Shown piece after piece: positions 26,239-63,114 of a DNA stretch of 64,000 bases. This stretch comes from Bacteroidales bacterium UBA6088. Its GTDB lineage: Bacteria; Bacteroidota; Bacteroidia; Bacteroidales; UBA932. The DNA lies in the NCBI GenBank assembly GCA_002428635.1, contig DIXE01000025.1, forward strand, positions 713 to 64,712, in the 5' to 3' direction. Both the position numbers and the translations under genes were made by a program. The stretch's first letter is position 1. Every line of letters begins with the position of its first letter. The notes beneath the pieces were generated by a model. The model worked only from the letters and a program-made list of their open reading frames with translations. It searched no databases and was not told where the DNA came from.

Positions 26239-26805
26239 ATGAACGAAAATTTTAAAAAGCAGATTGCCCGCATTGATGATATTGTCGAAATCAGCAAAAT
26301 CTTGAGCAGCAGCACACAATTACTTGAGAGCATTTCAAAATACAAGAAGCATCCTTACGATCCTCAATTTTTTCGTGACGGATACAAGGTTCCTATGAAT
26401 TTCCATAAAAAAGGTGATACAATCTATCTTTTGGGAGATTATCACATCAAAAGCGAAGACAACAGTTCCTCAGTAGAGATATTATACGAAGCCATCAGAA
26501 TGGATATGGTGTGCAGTGCTCATCCCCTTACAAGAACAGGGCTGTTTTGCGGACTTGTCGAGGCTTGTTCGGTGAACAGGCTTGGGTTTGACATAACCTC
26601 AGACGCTGAGATTCCAGACAAGGAATTTCTTTTCAACGACAAGAATTCCTCAATTCTGATATCTGTAAACTCAGAGAAGGAGGGAAAATTTGTTGACTAT
26701 ATTTTCAAAAACGGCATCAGACTCACTCTGCTAGGCCACGTTACAAAAGGAGAGCTGAGGCTCGACGAACTATCATTCGGATTTATTGACCAGTTTCTGG
26801 AGTAA
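26239..26805 (+). CDS. Stand-alone AIR-synthase/PurL C-terminal-like domain protein
   Basis: KKGDTIYLLG, SAHPLTRTGLFCGLVEAC (cf. PurL SAHDxSxGGLxxxLxE), EFLF...ILISV and LLGHVTKG resemble the last PurM-like domain of PurL. Confidence 0.55.
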   Translation: MNENFKKQIARIDDIVEISKILSSSTQLLESISKYKKHPYDPQFFRDGYKVPMNFHKKGDTIYLLGDYHIKSEDNSSSVEILYEAIRMDMVCSAHPLTRTGLFCGLVEACSVNRLGFDITSDAEIPDKEFLFNDKNSSILISVNSEKEGKFVDYIFKNGIRLTLLGHVTKGELRLDELSFGFIDQFLE

Positions 26806-27515
26806 TGGTCCCACTGCACACCGGCAGAGATTCGATTGCCTCAATGTTCAACAGTATCTCCGCGAGGTATGATCTTTTAAATCATCTTCTCTCCTTTGGA
26901 GTTGACAGATTCTGGAGAAGAGCTGTTGTAAGGAGAATTCAGGCAGAAAAAGTAGTTAATGTACTTGATATTGCCTGTGGAACCGGAGATCTTACCATAG
27001 CTCTCTGGAAAAAGGGATTAAATGTTACAGGCGTTGATATTGCAGAAAAAATGGTCGAAATTGCCAAAAAAAAATCTTCGGTATTGAATATCAGTGAAAA
27101 AGCTGCTCCTCAGTACATTATTGCTCCGGCTGAGAGTCTTCCTTTTGGGCACAACAGCTATGACGCAGTTACAATCGGTTTTGGGATACGAAATTTTGAA
27201 GACAGAAAAAAGGCTCTGTCAGAAATAAAAAGAGTGCTTAGACCCGGCGGATTTCTTGCAGTTCTGGAATTTTCAACAGCCAGGAATCCCGTGTGGAGAA
27301 AAATTTTCTGTTTCTATTTTTTTAAGATCCTCCCAATTATTGGCAGGATAATATCTAATGATTCTCAGGCTTACAGATACTTACCTGAATCTGTAAGGAA
27401 ATTTCCAACCCCGGCGGAATTTTGTGAGGAGCTCAAAATATCCGGATTTGAAAAATTAAGTGCAATATCCAAAACAGGTGGTATTGCAGTAACATATTTT
27501 GGCTACAAAACTTGA
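26805..27515 (+). CDS. menG: Demethylmenaquinone methyltransferase (UbiE/MenG)
   Basis: MFNSISARYDLLNHLLSFGVDRFWR, LDIACGTGD, GFGIRN, YRYLPESV..FP. Confidence 0.93.
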   Translation: MVPLHTGRDSIASMFNSISARYDLLNHLLSFGVDRFWRRAVVRRIQAEKVVNVLDIACGTGDLTIALWKKGLNVTGVDIAEKMVEIAKKKSSVLNISEKAAPQYIIAPAESLPFGHNSYDAVTIGFGIRNFEDRKKALSEIKRVLRPGGFLAVLEFSTARNPVWRKIFCFYFFKILPIIGRIISNDSQAYRYLPESVRKFPTPAEFCEELKISGFEKLSAISKTGGIAVTYFGYKT

Positions 27516-37307: not shown

Positions 37308-37985
37308 TCAGCCGTTAAGGCAAATATTCAAAAGCATCTGCCTGTTTACTATGCTTATATTCCTTCCTTCCATTACAATAATCCCGTCTCTTACAAATTC
37401 TGACAACACGCGACTGACACTTTCCCGGCTTGCATCCACAAGGTTTCCCATCTCCTCCTGATTGATCGACAGAGTAAATTTTTCTGAACGGTAAATCTCA
37501 TCGGCAAATTCCAGAAGAACTCCGGCAATCTTTCCCCTTATATGCCTCTGAGTACGGTTAACGCACTTCTGATAGGACTCCAGTTCGCTTTTGCAAAGCT
37601 CAAGAATTATCTGGTTGCTAAAGTCAGAGTTTAAATTCAGCAATTTCCGGAATGTAGTTATGTCTATGAAACAAACCTCAGAAGGCTCCACTGCAGTTAC
37701 AGAATACTGGTTTACTTTGTCGCCGAAAGTTGTTGGCAATCCAAGATAATTCCCCTGGCTTACAATTCTTACAACCTGTGTGTAGTAAGGTCCCTGAATA
37801 TGTATCTTGGCAAGACCTGTCCTCAGGTAGGCAACATTGGTAGAATAGGTTCCCTGCTTAATTATTGAGTCTCCCTTTTTGAATTTTACTGTTACGCAGT
37901 TTGCAGACAACTTTTCACTCTCTTTGGCTGTCAGTTTTTCTGCAGCTTTTGACTTCATTGTGCAGAAGTTACACTTGTTATCCAT
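37308..37985 (-). CDS. Crp/Fnr family transcriptional regulator with FNR-like cysteines
   Basis: cNMP-binding beta-roll, HTH QEEMGNLVDASRESVSRVLSEF, Cys5-x2-Cys8, Cys30 and internal SEVC105FID. Confidence 0.9.
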   Translation of the reverse strand: MDNKCNFCTMKSKAAEKLTAKESEKLSANCVTVKFKKGDSIIKQGTYSTNVAYLRTGLAKIHIQGPYYTQVVRIVSQGNYLGLPTTFGDKVNQYSVTAVEPSEVCFIDITTFRKLLNLNSDFSNQIILELCKSELESYQKCVNRTQRHIRGKIAGVLLEFADEIYRSEKFTLSINQEEMGNLVDASRESVSRVLSEFVRDGIIVMEGRNISIVNRQMLLNICLNG

Positions 37986-38129: not shown

Positions 38130-38696
38130 ATGCAAGAGGATTTACAGCAGAAGATTGACCAGTTAAGCAACGAGGTCGAAAATCTGCAAAAAAAGGTAAA
38201 AACTATTCAGAACAGCAGAAAAGACCAGCTATCCATTGCCTGTGTATCGGGAGATATGGACAAGATACTGGCCACAATGATTATTTCACTTGCAGCGGCT
38301 GCAATGGATACAAAAGTCAAGATATTTTTCTCATTCTGGGCTCTGTCTGCTCTGAGGGATCCAAAAAAGAATCCGAAAGGTAAAGACATCATCTCAAAAA
38401 TGTTCGGTTTTATGCTGCCAAAAAGTAAGAACAACCTTGGTCTGTCAAAGATGAATATGTGCGGAATGGGACCTGTGATGATAAAATATCTTATGAAAAA
38501 GCACAACGTTCTCTCTCTGGACGATATGTTTAAAACCGCAGGAGAACTTGGAATCGAAATAATTGTTTGTGAAATGTCTATGGGTCTTATGGGATTCAAA
38601 AAGGAGGAGATGATAGATTATCCTCACCTCACTTATGCAGGAGCTGCAACATTTGTAACCGATGCCGGAGAGAGTGCAGCACAACTATTTGTATAA
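38130..38696 (+). CDS. DsrE2-type (DsrE/DsrF/DrsH-like) sulfur-carrier protein
   Basis: SGDMDK..A.MII...AAAM, IFFSFWAL..LR, LSKMNM.GMG..M, conserved VCEMSM Cys, GAATF. Confidence 0.85.
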   Translation: MQEDLQQKIDQLSNEVENLQKKVKTIQNSRKDQLSIACVSGDMDKILATMIISLAAAAMDTKVKIFFSFWALSALRDPKKNPKGKDIISKMFGFMLPKSKNNLGLSKMNMCGMGPVMIKYLMKKHNVLSLDDMFKTAGELGIEIIVCEMSMGLMGFKKEEMIDYPHLTYAGAATFVTDAGESAAQLFV

Positions 38697-38725: not shown

Positions 38726-38977
38726 ATGACACAGGATGAACTGAGAGCTCTGCAAGTAACAAAGAGCGTAGATGCAAGAGGAACAGCTTGCCCCGGACCC
38801 CTGCTCGAAGCAAAAAAGGCACTTGGCACTATTGAAGAGGGAGAAATTATGGAGATCCTCTCTGCCGATGAAGGCACCAAGGTGGATATCCCAAAGTGGT
38901 GTACCAAGCAGGGGCACGATTATCTGGGAACAGTAGAGGAGAACGGTTACTACAAAATTTACATGAGAAAGAATTAA
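38726..38977 (+). CDS. tusA: TusA-family sulfurtransferase
   Basis: VDARGTACPGPLL (CPxP), LSADEGTKVDIPKWC...GH. Confidence 0.9.
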   Translation: MTQDELRALQVTKSVDARGTACPGPLLEAKKALGTIEEGEIMEILSADEGTKVDIPKWCTKQGHDYLGTVEENGYYKIYMRKN

Positions 38978-38986
38978 ACAAGAGCA

Positions 38987-39370
38987 ATGTCAAAACAGGC
39001 AAAGATCCTTGTATTCTCAACCGAAAAAATTTCTGACCCTGCCATAGATATGGCGGGATTACTCAAGCTTCACTATTCTCCGCAGGTATATACAATTGCA
39101 CTCAGATGTTCCAGTTCGATAAAGCCAAGATGGATCATACACGCTTTTGAGAAGGGATTTGACGGAGTATTTATTGCTGCAGACGGCAGCGATTGTGCGT
39201 TTAGTGAGAGCTGTACAGAAAAAACCGGAAATATTGTTAGTCAGACTCATAAACTTATGCAGCAGAAAGATATTGACCCTGCCAGACTCAGAATGGCAGC
39301 AATATGTTCCGTCTGCAGCGAATCGTTTGTAAAACAGATCAAAAGTTTCAATGAGTATCTGTTAAAATAG
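38987..39370 (+). CDS. MvhD/FlpD-like hydrogenase iron-sulfur subunit (divergent)
   Basis: IALRCSSSIKP..I..AFEKGFDGVFI, IDPARLR...ICSVC..F. Confidence 0.8.
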   Translation: MSKQAKILVFSTEKISDPAIDMAGLLKLHYSPQVYTIALRCSSSIKPRWIIHAFEKGFDGVFIAADGSDCAFSESCTEKTGNIVSQTHKLMQQKDIDPARLRMAAICSVCSESFVKQIKSFNEYLLK

Positions 39371-39379
39371 AGAAGTACA

Positions 39380-40681
39380 ATGGAAAAAGAGAAAATAAAC
39401 CTTTTCTTTGACGCAATGGTCATTGGAGGGGGAATTGCAGGGGGAGAATCCGCCTTAAATCTGGCAAACAATGGATACAAGGTTATTATTGTAGAAAAGG
39501 ATCTCTCCATAGGGGGAAAGATGATAATGTTAAGCAAGGTATTCCCAACGCTGGACTGCTCTGCCTGCATCACAACCCCAAAAGTATCTGAAATCTCAAG
39601 ACATAATAACATCACAATTTTTACCGAGAGCGATGTAAACTCTGTAGTAAAAATGGGAGAGAGACACTTCAGGGCAGAAATTACCAGGCGTCCCAGATAT
39701 GTTGTAGCCGAGGATTGTACCGGCTGCCAGAAATGCGAAGAGGCTTGTCCTGTTATTGTAAAGGACCAATACCAGTATAATCTTATCGGCAGAAAGGCAG
39801 CTTTTATTCCTTTCTCCATAGCCAGTCCCAAAATTGCAGCGATTGACATTGAAAACTGCACTCTTTGCGGAGCCTGTGAAAAGGCTTGCCCGTCGAACTG
39901 TATAGATTTCACACAAAAGGCTCTGGATTATGTGATTGATATAAAAAGTGTAGTGGTTGCAACCGGATTCAAGCTCTTCGACCCATTAAAAATCGAAAGG
40001 TATGGATTCGGCAAATTTAAGAATGTACTGACCTCTATGCAGATGGAGAGACAGCTTGCCCCTACCCGCCCATTTAACACAATACTCAGGCCATCAGACG
40101 GTAAAGTTCCCGACAAGATTGCCTATGTTTTGTGTGCCGGCTCAAGAGATGATTCCGAGGGGAATCCTATTTGCTCCCAGATTTGCTGTATGTACTCCAT
40201 TAAACAGGCTCAGCTGCTCATGGGAGCTCTTCCAATGGCAGACATTACAATTTACTACATTGACATAAGGGCATTTGGCAAGGGCTACGATGAGTTCTAT
40301 GAACAGGCAAAAGGGATGGGAGTCTCTTTTATAAAGGGAAAAATCGGCAAAATCACAAAGGGAGAAAGAGGAGACCTTACACTCAGGTACGAAGATGTTT
40401 CCACCGGAAAGATCAAGGAGGCACGGCACGATATGGTAGTTTTGTCGGTAGGTGTACTTGCAAACGATGAGGCTGTTCCTATGTTCAGATCAAACACTCT
40501 TTTGACAGATCCTCTCAATTACATAAGGCAGGAAGACCCAATAATCAGCCCGGCAAAGACATCCATAGAAGGGGTTTTTGTCTCCGGAACAGCCTCCGGA
40601 CCTATGGACATTCCCGACTCAATACTCTCGGCAGGTGCGGCAGCTTCACAGGCAACGGCCTATCTTAAGAGAATCAATTAA
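39380..40681 (+). CDS. HdrA/QmoA-like FAD and FeS flavoprotein (no N-terminal domain, has inserted ferredoxin)
   Basis: VIGGGIAG, KVFPTLDCSAC, CTGCQKCEEACP, CTLCGACEKACP, CAGSRD...CSQICCMYSIK, GTASGPMDIPDSI. Confidence 0.9.
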   Translation: MEKEKINLFFDAMVIGGGIAGGESALNLANNGYKVIIVEKDLSIGGKMIMLSKVFPTLDCSACITTPKVSEISRHNNITIFTESDVNSVVKMGERHFRAEITRRPRYVVAEDCTGCQKCEEACPVIVKDQYQYNLIGRKAAFIPFSIASPKIAAIDIENCTLCGACEKACPSNCIDFTQKALDYVIDIKSVVVATGFKLFDPLKIERYGFGKFKNVLTSMQMERQLAPTRPFNTILRPSDGKVPDKIAYVLCAGSRDDSEGNPICSQICCMYSIKQAQLLMGALPMADITIYYIDIRAFGKGYDEFYEQAKGMGVSFIKGKIGKITKGERGDLTLRYEDVSTGKIKEARHDMVVLSVGVLANDEAVPMFRSNTLLTDPLNYIRQEDPIISPAKTSIEGVFVSGTASGPMDIPDSILSAGAAASQATAYLKRIN

Positions 40682-40692
40682 CATTCAGCGGT

Positions 40693-42420
40693 ATGGAAAA
40701 AAGAATAGGTGTTTATATATGCGCTTGCGGAGGCAATATTTCTGATTATGTTGACATTGAAAAGGTAAAAGAGTCTATTACCGGAGAAAATGCAGTTTTG
40801 CTGGCAAAGACTACGATGTTTGCCTGCGGGGATGCCAATCAGAAGGATATGGATTCCGATATCAGAAAAAATGATCTTAACGGAATTGTGGTAGCATCCT
40901 GCTCACCCAAGCTTCACCTCTCAACCTTCAGGGCTGTAAGTGAAAGAGCAGGTCTCAACAAATACAACTATGTTCACGCAAACATAAGGGAACAGGCTTC
41001 CTGGGCACACTCCGATGATAAACCGGGAGCAACCGAAAAGGCAATACTGCTGGTAAAGGCAGCCATTGCTAAGGCAAGGCACGCCTCCTCACTGGAACCC
41101 ATTAAGATAAAATCAAAAAAGAGTGTAGCGGTTATTGGGGCCGGAATCGCCGGGATAAAGGCTGCACAGGCTCTGTCGGCAATGGGAGATAAAGTTTATC
41201 TTATAGAAAAGGAGAGTAAAATCGGGGGTAATCTTTTAAATATCAACAGAGTAAATCCCGAATCAGAAACTGGGGAAGAAATTGTCAAGAGGCTTTCCAA
41301 AGAAATTGAGAATGAAGAAAATATCACATTGCTCACAGGTCACAGAATAACCTCAGGTTCCGGAAATATTGGCGATTTTGTACTCACCCTTAAAGGCAAC
41401 AACAACCCTGGAGAGGATAATTTTCCCGAAAAAGAGATAAATGTGGGTTCTGTTCTTGTTGCAACAGGTTTTGAGAGTTACTCTCCCCTGACGGGTGAAT
41501 ACGGATACGGCCAGCTTCCCGGAGTGGTTACTCTTGCACAGTTCAACAAGCTGCTCAAGGGACAGAATGGAATGAGCTTTGTTGCTTTTGGCAAAGAGGT
41601 AAAAAGTGTCGCTTTCATTTACTGTGTAGGGAGCAGAGAGATAAAGGGAGACAATAAGTACTGTTCAAGATATTGCTGCAGCGCCGCAATTCAGAGTGCT
41701 CTGGATTTGTCAGAGAGATTCCCGGATTCTGACATTTATCACCTCACAAGGGGGGTAAGAAGCTATGGCAAGCAGGAGCTCCTGTACAAAGAAGCCAACA
41801 GAAGAGGCGATCTTTTTATTCAGTTTCCCGACAAAGAACCTCCGGTGATTGAAGAGAAAGATGACAAAATAATTATTAAGGTCAAGGATATTCTTAGCGG
41901 CAAAAGGGAGCTGGAAGCAGAGACCGATATAGTTGTGCTTGTAACAGGAATGGTTCCCGTACAGGACGATAATACCGGTAGCATATTCAAACTTCCAAGA
42001 GGCAGAGATAAATTCTACAACGAGATACATATGAAACTCAGACCGGTTGAAACAGCCATCGATGGTGTTACAATTGCCGGAGCCTGCCAGGGGCCAAAGA
42101 ATGCTTCCGAAAGCGTGAACTCTGCTCTGGCTGCAGCAGCCAAGTCCCACTCTCTTGTAAGTACCGGAGAGCTGGAGCTCGAACCAATCGTTGCCTATGT
42201 AGATGAAGATAAGTGTACCTGGTGCGATGAGTGCAGCAAAGCCTGCCCTTTTAACGCAATTTCTGTAATTGAGATGTTCCAAAAGAGTATTGCCCGGATC
42301 AACAAGTCAACCTGCAAAGGATGCGGAATGTGTCTTCCGGTTTGCCCGACAGACGCAATTGAACTTATATCATTTACCAACAAAGAGATAGAAGATATGA
42401 TTGATGTTCTGTCCCAATAA
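40693..42420 (+). CDS. HdrA/QmoB-like FAD and FeS flavoprotein (N-terminal domain and C-terminal ferredoxin)
   Basis: RIGVYICACGGNI, FAC, VVASCSPKLH, NIREQ.SWAH, VIGAGIAG, CVGSR...CSRYCC, GACQGPK, CTWCDECSKACP, CKGCGMCLPVCP. Confidence 0.9.
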   Translation: MEKRIGVYICACGGNISDYVDIEKVKESITGENAVLLAKTTMFACGDANQKDMDSDIRKNDLNGIVVASCSPKLHLSTFRAVSERAGLNKYNYVHANIREQASWAHSDDKPGATEKAILLVKAAIAKARHASSLEPIKIKSKKSVAVIGAGIAGIKAAQALSAMGDKVYLIEKESKIGGNLLNINRVNPESETGEEIVKRLSKEIENEENITLLTGHRITSGSGNIGDFVLTLKGNNNPGEDNFPEKEINVGSVLVATGFESYSPLTGEYGYGQLPGVVTLAQFNKLLKGQNGMSFVAFGKEVKSVAFIYCVGSREIKGDNKYCSRYCCSAAIQSALDLSERFPDSDIYHLTRGVRSYGKQELLYKEANRRGDLFIQFPDKEPPVIEEKDDKIIIKVKDILSGKRELEAETDIVVLVTGMVPVQDDNTGSIFKLPRGRDKFYNEIHMKLRPVETAIDGVTIAGACQGPKNASESVNSALAAAAKSHSLVSTGELELEPIVAYVDEDKCTWCDECSKACPFNAISVIEMFQKSIARINKSTCKGCGMCLPVCPTDAIELISFTNKEIEDMIDVLSQ

Positions 42421-42427
42421 TTCAAAA

Positions 42428-42703
42428 ATGATGATAGAAAAGAAAGAGACATTTAAGATATTGAGGGAACAACACAAGGTTCCCGAAAGTGTAAAAGAGA
42501 ATCTAAAGGATTTCAACAAGATAAAAAGATCAATTCTTCTGGCTCTTAAAGAGGAAGATCTCACTGTAGCCGAATTATCCGGAAAGCTTCAGATACCTGC
42601 AGACGAAATTGTTTACTATCTTCTCTCGCTGGTAAAGTTCGGTTTTGTAAAAACCGGAGAGATTGACAGTATGGACGAGTACTTCAAATATAAACTTAAG
42701 TGA
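42428..42703 (+). CDS. Small winged-helix (ArsR-like fold) protein
   Basis: ILLALKEEDLTVAELSGKLQIPADEIVYYLLSLVKFGFV..GE.....YFKY. Embedded in the hdr operon. Confidence 0.7.
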   Translation: MMIEKKETFKILREQHKVPESVKENLKDFNKIKRSILLALKEEDLTVAELSGKLQIPADEIVYYLLSLVKFGFVKTGEIDSMDEYFKYKLK

Positions 42704-42704
42704 G

Positions 42705-45346
<2,642 letters not shown>

Positions 45347-61781: not shown

Positions 61782-62120
61782 ATGAGAGCAATGGAAATAT
61801 ACCGCAACGGAATTTTGGCAGGAATACTTACAGAAGAAAATCGTCAGCATTATGTTTTCAGGTATGATGACAAATACTTTAACGATTCCGGTAAATCGGC
61901 AATAAGTTTAACGCTGCCAAAAACACAAATAGAACACAGCTGCGAATTTTTGTTCCCGTTTTTCTTTAATATGATAAGTGAAGGAGTAAACCGGAAATTG
62001 CAAAACACCCTGTTGAGAATAGACGAAGAAGATGATTTCGGGATACTGGCAGCAACAGCACAATATGATACAATTGGAGCAGTAACCGTAAAACCAATAA
62101 GGCAAGATGAACTTAAATGA
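61782..62120 (+). CDS. HipA N-terminal-domain protein (HipS-like)
   Basis: IYRNGILAGIL, YVFRYD..Y, AISLTLP, LFPFF.NM.SEG, DTIGAVTV. Confidence 0.85.
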   Translation: MRAMEIYRNGILAGILTEENRQHYVFRYDDKYFNDSGKSAISLTLPKTQIEHSCEFLFPFFFNMISEGVNRKLQNTLLRIDEEDDFGILAATAQYDTIGAVTVKPIRQDELK

Positions 62121-63114
62121 ATTAAATTATTGTCCCGGAACTTTAGCAAAAGGATTTTCTTCCTACAGCCCAGGCTGCTTGCGGAATTTGTTTAACGGTA
62201 AAAAGGTAAATCATATTTTGCAATATGAGCAACCACAGATAAGTGAAGAAGTTGCCGAGGAGTTCATAGAAAACCGGAAACGTATATCCATATCCGGTGT
62301 GCAGGAAAAAGTGAGTTTTCTTTTGGAGAAAAATGTATTGCGATTGACACAGGAAGGGGAACAGGGAACATATATACTCAAGCCGATACCAAGAGATTTG
62401 AAAAATGTTGACCAGGTTCCTGCCAACGAACATTTGACTATGCAAATAGCCAAACAAGTATATGGACTAAAGACGGCAGAAAACGCATTGATTTTTTTCA
62501 AGAATGGTTCACCGGCCTACATCACCAAACGATTTGACATCAAAGAAAACGGAAGTAAATGGGGCAAAGAAGATTTTGCAACTCTGGCAGGAAAGACCAA
62601 AGACAATGCAGGTGCAAATTTCAAATATGCATACAGCTACGAAGAGGCAGGACAGTTGATTCAGAAATTTGTTCCTGCTTGGCAGATAGAAATAGAAAAG
62701 TATTTTTCTTTAGTTGTTTTCAATTTTCTGTTTTCAAACGGAGATGCTCATTTAAAGAACTTCTCTTTGCTTGAATCATCAAGTGGAGATTATTTGTTAA
62801 GTCCCGCTTATGATCTGATAAATACAAAACTGCATATTGATGATGTGGATTTTGCTTTGGATAAAGGACTGTTTGCAGATGATTATAAAAGTGAACAATA
62901 CAAGAAAAGCGGACATCCTTCCAAAAGCGATTTCAAGGAATTTGCCATTAGGATTGGAGTTACAGAAAGCCGTGTTGAGAAACTGCTGAATCCTTTTTTC
63001 GAAAAGCAACCACTTATGGAAACATTGGTCAGCCGTTCATTCTTAACTGAGACCAACAAAAGGGGATACTTGCTAATGTATAACACAAAAAGGAATCATT
63101 TAACAGCTCAATAA
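62107..63114 (+). CDS. HipA C-terminal-domain Ser/Thr kinase toxin (HipT-like)
   Basis: ISISGVQEK activation loop, YILKP, NEHLTMQIA, RFD, EDF, NGDAHLKNFS, LSPAYDL. Confidence 0.88.
   Translation: MNLNELNYCPGTLAKGFSSYSPGCLRNLFNGKKVNHILQYEQPQISEEVAEEFIENRKRISISGVQEKVSFLLEKNVLRLTQEGEQGTYILKPIPRDLKNVDQVPANEHLTMQIAKQVYGLKTAENALIFFKNGSPAYITKRFDIKENGSKWGKEDFATLAGKTKDNAGANFKYAYSYEEAGQLIQKFVPAWQIEIEKYFSLVVFNFLFSNGDAHLKNFSLLESSSGDYLLSPAYDLINTKLHIDDVDFALDKGLFADDYKSEQYKKSGHPSKSDFKEFAIRIGVTESRVEKLLNPFFEKQPLMETLVSRSFLTETNKRGYLLMYNTKRNHLTAQ

Follow-up and report, generated by a model that had tools for sequence, protein, structure and literature searches.

Two HdrA proteins encoded side by side in a Bacteroidales operon are probably the QmoA-like and QmoB-like halves of an asymmetric dimer

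The HdrA subunit of the methanogen HdrABC-MvhAGD complex (5ODC, 8RVU, 7BKB) forms a homodimer whose chains have four domains each and whose two bifurcating flavins are equivalent. Here we describe two adjacent genes of Bacteroidales bacterium UBA6088, at positions 39380-42420 of a 64,000-nucleotide stretch of contig DIXE01000025.1 (the whole stretch is called the window throughout). Their products, HdrA-1 and HdrA-2, share with methanogen HdrA the flavin adenine dinucleotide (FAD) domain, the Cys386/399/403/404 cluster and the domain types, but the domains and key residues are divided between two chains. In the methanogen protein, Cys197 of one protomer ligates the cluster in the N-terminal domain (N-domain) of the other (PMC9012536). 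For residue 197, a position taken by selenocysteine in M. maripaludis, a role as a bridge between the flavin and this N-domain cluster has been suggested, and the cluster itself is part of the route that leads from flavin to inserted ferredoxin (PMC13518236). Lys409 touches N5 of the flavin and Glu356 positions Lys409 (PMC6405883, PMC12054007); the presence of these two residues has been proposed to tell bifurcating from non-bifurcating relatives (PMC12054007). The N- and C-terminal domains of methanogen HdrA move with MvhD as a mobile arm (PMC13518236). For tandem or fused HdrA proteins that are complementary in N-domain and Cys197, Chadwick et al. (2022) proposed symmetry-breaking heterodimers (PMC9012536).

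The other close point of reference is the QmoABC complex, which consists of two HdrA-like flavoproteins and QmoC, an HdrC-like Fe-S domain fused to a haem-b membrane domain. The short flavoprotein has about 410-430 amino acids (aa) and no N-domain, and the long one has two-[4Fe-4S] ferredoxin sites and MvhD (PMC3333476). A 'type II' Qmo, described by Neukirchen et al. (2023), is nearer to HdrA and occurs in hosts without Apr or Dsr, where its function is unknown (PMC10504309). In Desulfovibrio, Archaeoglobus and Chlorobaculum (sulfate reducers and green sulfur bacteria), QmoA and QmoB form the same short/long pair beside QmoC that we find in the window, a likeness that we draw from literature descriptions and architecture. 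The N-domain content of the Qmo pair lies in QmoB. We propose that a complex conserved in Bacteroidales probably contains HdrA-1 as its QmoA-like and HdrA-2 as its QmoB-like subunit, and that the two proteins belong to an asymmetric HdrA family whose members pair as a 1:1 pseudo-symmetric dimer. Judged by its genes, which run dsrE-tusA-mvhD-hdrA1-hdrA2-HTH-qmoC, the host complex is a predicted membrane redox complex of anaerobic Bacteroidales.

HdrA-1 (39380..40681, 433 aa, P0001) and HdrA-2 (40693..42420, 575 aa, P0002) are both encoded on the + strand, 11 nucleotides (nt) apart, and all of their features listed below lie on that strand. A sequence search returned methanogen HdrA as the top PDB match for both proteins alike. 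HdrA-1 aligns with residues 139-564 of M. thermolithotrophicus HdrA (5ODC_A; E 9e-105), a span that covers the thioredoxin-reductase-like flavin domain and the inserted ferredoxin, without the N-domain and without the C-terminal ferredoxin. For HdrA-2 the alignment falls into two blocks, 3-233 and 318-640 (E 2e-112), which correspond to the N-terminal Cys domain, the flavin domain without its insert, and the C-terminal ferredoxin. Reference numbering was counted along these 5ODC_A alignments, with DC194xxC197, Glu356 as the second E of ELER, the cluster ligands Cys386/399/403/404, and Lys409 as the K of CCMYAMK.

In HdrA-1, the DCSAC motif (residues 59-63; 39554..39568) supplies Cys60 and Cys63 as the Cys194 and Cys197 equivalents. 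The inserted ferredoxin (about residues 105-180; 39692..39919) contains eight Cys for two [4Fe-4S] clusters, arranged as CxxCxxCxxxC at 113-123 and 160-170 and invariant among orthologues. By alignment, Glu223 in MERQL (40046..40048) is the equivalent of Glu356, and Lys275 in CCMYSIK (40202..40204) is the equivalent of Lys409, for which the N5-contact role is taken from published work (PMC6405883, PMC12054007). HdrA-2 begins with the N-domain (about residues 1-130; 40693..41082), whose Cys10, Cys12, Cys45 and Cys70 stand in the motifs ICAC (9-12), FAC (43-45) and ASC (68-70). It has PESET (189-193) where DCxxC would stand, and its alignment places Thr193 to Glu196 (41269..41280) at the Cys194 and Cys197 positions, with both Cys lost. 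About 15 residues take the place of the inserted ferredoxin of about 80 residues, and the gap between the aligned blocks puts this short linker at residues 235-247 (41395..41433). At the Glu356 position HdrA-2 has Asn285, in FNKLL (41545..41547), and at the Lys409 position Gln334, in CCSAAIQ (41692..41694). Its C-terminal ferredoxin (about residues 495-560; 42175..42372) matches PF14697 (E 3e-13), with CxxCxxCxxxC at 508-518 and 541-551.

A sequence-only reading of this DNA had described the same distribution. It had HdrA-1 lacking the N-terminal Cys domain as well as the C-terminal ferredoxin while keeping the inserted 2x[4Fe-4S] ferredoxin, the DCSAC motif, the Glu of MERQL and the Lys of CCMYSIK; HdrA-2 was said to have the N-terminal domain together with the C-terminal ferredoxin and to have lost DCxxC, Glu and Lys. 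The 5ODC_A alignments located every one of these features, with T193/E196, N285 and Q334 at the lost positions, and the motifs map to Cys194/Cys197, Glu356 and Lys409 of Methanothermococcus HdrA. The structural background it drew on, a Cys donated in trans and a Glu and a Lys near the FAD, is borne out by the literature (PMC9012536, PMC6405883, PMC12054007).

Both proteins carry the hallmarks of the HdrA family, an FAD fold with GxGxxG and four cluster Cys. These Cys, the equivalents of the Cys386-type ligands, are Cys252/265/269/270 in HdrA-1 and Cys311/324/328/329 in HdrA-2 and are invariant among orthologues. Neither chain unites the four domains with Cys197, Glu356 and Lys409, the combination that marks a canonical homodimeric bifurcating HdrA, and the NCBIfam HdrA models score the window pair at 333-489 bits, with cut-offs at 1100-1400. 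The Lys409/Glu356 bifurcation marker is present in HdrA-1 and absent from HdrA-2. AlphaFold2 monomer models of HdrA-1 and HdrA-2 are of moderate confidence (pLDDT 70 and 77). The top Foldseek matches of both models are HdrA chains (TM 0.83 for HdrA-1 and 0.76 for HdrA-2), and the HdrA-1 model matches over its full length the 428-residue rigid HdrA core modelled in 8RWN.

This division of parts is conserved. In a locus scan that used one genome per species and examined 8-kb flanks, the same operon was found in 29 Bacteroidales loci, in assemblies labelled Proteiniphilum, Fermentimonas, Parabacteroides, Mariniphaga, Rikenellaceae and Paludibacter, among others, and with flanks that differ between the loci. 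The HdrA-1 and HdrA-2 genes are adjacent in every locus, and in 24 of 27 loci there is an overlap of 4 or 1 nt between the HdrA-1 stop and the HdrA-2 start, which fits translationally coupled, stoichiometric subunits. Cys-Cys-Glu-Lys occupies positions 194/197/356/409 in all 27 HdrA-1 orthologues, and all four residues are lost in all 25 full-length HdrA-2 orthologues, where the Glu356 position is mostly Lys and the Lys409 position mostly His, Tyr or Phe. Invariant in HdrA-2 orthologues are the four N-domain Cys (25/25), the eight Cys of the C-terminal ferredoxin, the Cys386-type cluster and the FAD-binding glycines (GxGxxG). Because the FAD-binding motifs are invariant, HdrA-2 very probably still binds FAD. 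Besides the cluster ligands and Cys465, no conserved Cys lies near its flavin.

The inserted domain of HdrA-2 shows more variation. Most orthologues have about 642 aa and retain it (L002:8001-9926, L003:8001-9932 and about 18 other loci); its first CxxCxxC has decayed, but the Cys-Pro that trails this motif persists, as does a second motif, NCTRCGxCEKxC. By its remaining motifs, this degenerate insert appears to hold enough ligands for one cluster. The insert-deleted form of about 575 aa occurs only in the window and its nearest relatives (L001, L006, L007, L010 and probably L014). Since the deletion is restricted to these relatives, we regard the loss of the insert as a late, lineage-specific step of a gradual decay. 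The sequence-only statement that HdrA-2 has lost its inserted ferredoxin thus describes the window's sub-lineage and does not extend to most orthologues, which keep the one-cluster insert.

The two types also occur joined in one chain. We ran a profile-free search with HdrA-2 against 1.84 billion cluster representatives (50% identity), obtained 11,044 matches and analysed the best 150. Among these best 150, 112 are single chains in which an HdrA-1-like half of about 440 aa precedes an HdrA-2-like half of about 560 aa, the same order as that of the genes in the window. The N-terminal half has Cys-Cys-Glu-Lys in 89 of the 112, and in 14 more the Cys pair is hidden by an alignment gap. Cys is absent from positions 194 and 197 in every C-terminal half (0/112); 103 of these halves have the full set of four N-domain Cys, and about 108 are without the inserted ferredoxin. 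MvhD is appended at the end of some fusions.

A tree of the flavin core, rooted on full-length Asgard HdrA, groups Bacteroidales HdrA-1 with the N-terminal halves of the fusions (support 0.80) and HdrA-2 with stand-alone HdrA-2-like proteins and the C-terminal halves (support 0.97), each as a monophyletic group. From the fusions and the tree together it follows that the HdrA-1 and HdrA-2 types are old, travel together and have repeatedly been joined in one chain. This is strong indirect evidence, from sequence, for a 1:1 heterodimer over independent homodimers, and the fusions are the weightiest new part of it. The asymmetric HdrA family thus appears old and large, with members that are either two genes or one fused chain. 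The N-domain/Cys197 complementarity from which Chadwick et al. argued is present in the window pair, in 25-27 orthologous pairs and in the 112 fusions. We consider an HdrA-1:HdrA-2 heterodimer very likely; the asymmetric heterodimer of the sequence-only reading is supported as far as sequence comparison goes, by orthologue conservation, gene adjacency and overlap, and the 112 fusions. A recent local duplication of the pair was also considered and is rejected, as the two proteins fall in two separate deep clades, each common to the fusion halves. The outgroup proteins of the tree (L030-L036, L038; Hermodarchaeota and other Asgard archaea) are four-domain HdrA fused to canonical MvhD, about 816 aa in length, and they retain DCxxC, Glu356 and Lys409.

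The methanogen structures suggest how such a dimer could be wired, and by this analogy an in-trans Cys and a single low-potential branch seem likely to us. Cys63 of HdrA-1 would complete the [4Fe-4S] cluster in the N-domain of HdrA-2, and because of this only one low-potential branch would survive, leading from the HdrA-1 FAD through the shared N-domain cluster to the inserted ferredoxin of HdrA-1. Read against the published HdrA structure, the lost parts (the N-domain of HdrA-1; Cys197, the insert and the Lys/Glu pair of HdrA-2) would amount to one of the two symmetric low-potential branches, and the retained parts would make up the other. The mobile input arm would consist of the N- and C-terminal domains of HdrA-2 and the separate MvhD-like protein, and one of the two Cys386-type clusters would deliver electrons to the HdrC-like domain of QmoC, then to haem b and menaquinone. 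Since HdrA-2 lacks the Lys/Glu pair and any low-potential outlet, its flavin is probably not a bifurcation site and probably serves as a plain electron-transfer or structural flavin.

Whether this wiring amounts to real bifurcation or confurcation is a more tentative matter, for which we see somewhat less than an even chance. The linked TusA and DsrE genes suggest that the third substrate could be a protein persulfide. It is tempting to speculate, though we think it doubtful, that the HdrA dimer has here been pared down to a minimal membrane-bound enzyme that bifurcates or confurcates, with menaquinone, ferredoxin and zero-valent sulfur carried by protein as the coupled substrates. Such a unit would comprise a single flavin with the Lys/Glu pair, a single N-domain cluster ligated in trans and a single inserted ferredoxin. 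Its partners in these fermenting bacteria would be a QmoC that reacts with quinone, an MvhD-like protein with altered wiring, and TusA and DsrE as a persulfide relay. Living relatives would then show how the second branch decayed step by step, from full insert to one-cluster insert to deletion.

Several points weigh against an asymmetric dimer with one bifurcating flavin. Our case for heterodimer assembly is drawn from fusions, gene overlap and complementarity, and the monomer models are of moderate confidence (pLDDT 70-77). The N-domain of HdrA-2 has four conserved Cys of its own, which would allow its cluster to be ligated in cis only. No CCG/HdrB-type catalytic subunit is encoded in the operon or nearby, nor is an Apr partner encoded nearby. 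The Lys/Glu pair is a proposed, not a proven, marker of bifurcation, and bifurcation has been shown for no Qmo complex (PMC3333476). In addition, the C-terminal halves of the fusions keep Glu356 in 73/112, Lys409 in 77/112 and both in 56/112, which makes the single competent flavin a feature of the clade rather than an architectural necessity. Among stand-alone HdrA-2-like representatives, both residues are present in 5/29. The claim that Glu and Lys are found only on HdrA-1 is therefore correct for the Bacteroidales orthologues (27/27 against 25/25) but is not a rule of the family.

An asymmetric heterodimer could also form without bifurcating. Electrons would then pass linearly between menaquinone and a cytoplasmic partner, either ferredoxin or a carrier acting via MvhD, TusA or DsrE, and both flavins would convert two-electron into one-electron transfer. 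Transfer from quinol through purified QmoABC to AprAB was not demonstrable, bifurcation or confurcation by Qmo is still hypothetical (PMC3333476), the Lys409/Glu356 criterion is a proposal (PMC12054007), and the operon has no enzyme for a third substrate, all of which would suit linear transfer. We nevertheless think it rather unlikely: HdrA-1 strictly conserves the complete unit (Cys-Cys-Glu-Lys in 27/27, the eight insert Cys and the Cys386-type cluster), and a ferredoxin-facing and a quinone-facing branch on one flavin are hard to square with it. That the two flavins are both functional and specialised is a further option, in which HdrA-1 bifurcates and the HdrA-2 flavin would serve a second substrate, such as a persulfide or thiol from TusA or DsrE, at a site remodelled both at the Glu356 position (Lys or Asn) and at the Lys409 position (His, Tyr, Phe or Gln). 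The invariant FAD-binding motifs of HdrA-2 do imply selection on its flavin, the operon always contains TusA and DsrE without a CCG-type catalytic subunit, and the Lys at Glu356 with an aromatic residue or His at Lys409 in most orthologues looks like replacement rather than random decay. However, Cys465 and the cluster ligands are the only conserved Cys near this flavin, and the Lys409 position varies among H, Y, F, R, N and Q, a spread that speaks against any precise role in catalysis; we find such specialisation improbable.

It is also conceivable, but in our view very improbable, that the paralogues are independent, as homodimers or in separate complexes, and that their adjacency reflects co-regulation. 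The HdrA-2 cluster would then be ligated in cis by its four invariant N-domain Cys, and the Cys pair of HdrA-1 would be a flavin-adjacent, redox-active dithiol. The DCxxC motif does adjoin the flavin, and a stand-alone HdrA-like flavoprotein has been crystallised alone (6TJR). This arrangement is difficult to reconcile with 112 natural fusions that keep the same order of types, with Cys194/197 occurring only in the half without an N-domain (at least 89/112 versus 0/112), with 1-4 nt gene overlaps in 24/27 loci, and with two separate clades that recur together.

If we return to HdrA-1 and HdrA-2 as a QmoA-like/QmoB-like pair, the comparison with described systems brings out what is particular to it. 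Relative to the methanogen complex, there is no HdrB in the operon, and QmoC stands in place of HdrC. Unlike in Qmo, MvhD has its own gene upstream and its Cys pattern is changed, no further domain follows the C-terminal ferredoxin of HdrA-2, the operon includes DsrE, TusA and a small helix-turn-helix (HTH) gene, and there is no linked aprBA or sat in the scanned window open reading frames (ORFs) or in the 8-kb flanks of the 29 loci. 'Type II' Qmo fits a window complex with a low qmoC score (135.7 versus 300 bits) and no linked Apr or Sat genes. The same N-domain/Cys197 complementarity is seen in HdrA5/6, 12/13 and 3/4 of anaerobic methanotrophic archaea (ANME) and in the fused HdrA of the Moorella MetFV-HdrABC-MvhD complex (PMC9012536). 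Those systems are soluble and Hdr-type, from archaea and acetogens, whereas the window pair is linked to quinone via QmoC and comes from Bacteroidales; its clade adds the loss of Glu356/Lys409 and the stepwise loss of the insert in the copy that bears the N-domain.

Two other relatives deserve mention. sHdrA of Hyphomicrobium denitrificans (6TJR), which matches HdrA-1 at E 4e-38 and HdrA-2 at E 2e-31, is a flavin-domain-only HdrA relative tied to TusA/DsrE-type sulfur relays, like the operon setting in the window. It differs in its length of about 340 residues, in lacking both a ferredoxin insert and an N-domain partner, and in being part of a soluble sHdr complex that also contains HdrB and HdrC. 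Many of the nearest HdrA-2 relatives among the representatives from our search are very long fusions of 1300-1500 aa (P0135, P0144, P0145 and others), which have an insertion of about 450 aa that splits the ferredoxin insert of the HdrA-1-like half and then continue with an HdrA-2-like half. They are like the HdrL-type fusions, in which an NfnB-like insertion lies within the HdrA ferredoxin insert (Chadwick, PMC9012536), whereas the insert of HdrA-1 in the window is plain, without an NAD(P)H-binding module.

The gene order around the pair is conserved as a divergent Crp/Fnr gene followed by DsrE, TusA, MvhD-like, HdrA-1, HdrA-2, small HTH and QmoC-like genes. The divergent regulator (37308..37985, - strand) has Pfam cNMP_binding and HTH_Crp_2 and occupies the same position in 23 related loci; the remaining genes are on the + strand. 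A DsrE2-like sulfur-carrier protein (38130..38696) matches PF13686 DrsE_2 (E 3e-44), and its Cys147 is invariant in 17/17 orthologues. Related loci have one to three DsrE-family genes before tusA (e.g. L002:5559-5984, L004:4913-5344), of 188-aa DsrE2-like, 141-aa DrsE_2 and 143-aa DsrE types, and the window has only the first of these. The TusA sulfurtransferase (38726..38977; PF01206, E 3e-24) has an invariant Cys22 in CPGP (25/25). The MvhD/FlpD-like protein (38987..39370; PF02662, E 2e-28) has five invariant Cys, Cys41/70/76/107/110 (25/25), which include a C-terminal CxxC, and lacks the N-terminal CxxC found in the MvhD part of the Asgard HdrA-MvhD fusions. Its cofactor and role may differ from those of MvhD.

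Downstream of HdrA-2, a small winged-helix (ArsR/TrmB-like) protein (42401..42703) with weak HTH_5/TrmB matches is present in 27 loci, and there is mostly a 1-nt overlap between its stop and the start of QmoC. Its true start is probably about 9 codons 3' of the listed TTG. It lies between hdrA2 and qmoC and could be a complex subunit or adaptor rather than a regulator. The QmoC-like subunit (42705..43793) has an HdrC-like 2x[4Fe-4S] domain fused to a membrane domain, and eight Cys together with His207/227/336/355 are invariant in 26 loci. It is covered over its full length by NF038018 qmoC at 135.7 bits, below the cut-off of 300. Its mechanically called ORF starts at TTG 42663; because orthologues align from residue 15 of that ORF, the start is probably ATG 42705 (MAKIDRKF...). 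In six loci (L012, L013, L016, L017, L018, L029) a conserved gene set lies 3' of qmoC, consisting of DUF134, two NifX-like (Nitro_FeMo-Co), ARMT1-like, radical SAM and CGGC-domain genes and MinD/Fer4 P-loop ATPases.

In the window, F-type ATP synthase genes then come 3' of the operon. Our Pfam scan covered 46 ORFs. All ORFs of 300 aa or more are among them, apart from the ATP-synthase alpha subunit, dnaK and 62107-63114; most ORFs below 300 aa lie outside the 46. No apr, sat, dsr or HdrB-type gene was found among the 46, and no apr, sat or dsr gene belongs to the conserved gene set of the 29 loci with their 8-kb flanks; the other scanned window ORFs are housekeeping genes. A UbiE/MenG-type methyltransferase is encoded at 26805-27515, which fits menaquinone synthesis in a host with a quinone-linked QmoC. 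A scan for sigma-70 promoters and terminators yielded no usable result for this Bacteroidota operon. The stretch 39380-42420 was found complete in four DNA runs of a single 2013 hydrocarbon metagenome sample, with few and weak matches elsewhere, and none of the RNA runs searched contain it.

The heterodimer principle itself has already been published (Chadwick et al. 2022, PMC9012536), and the pair described here is a further case of it, not a new principle. What is new is a quinone-linked member from Bacteroidales, the clade-wide loss of Glu356 and Lys409 in the N-domain copy, the stepwise loss of the insert, and the fusion count; we found no description of the operon in Bacteroidales in the literature. 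If our reading is true, HdrA-1 and HdrA-2 would provide an HdrA module that is asymmetric by nature and has only one bifurcation site. Such a module would be a better object for spectroscopy and mutagenesis than the symmetric methanogen enzyme, as no second, equivalent flavin and cluster chain would overlay its signals. The wiring of an uncharacterised complex linked to quinone would be settled as well. The complex is widespread in anaerobic Bacteroidales of digesters, sediments and hydrocarbon sites, and it may account for electron exchange between these fermenters and sulfur compounds.

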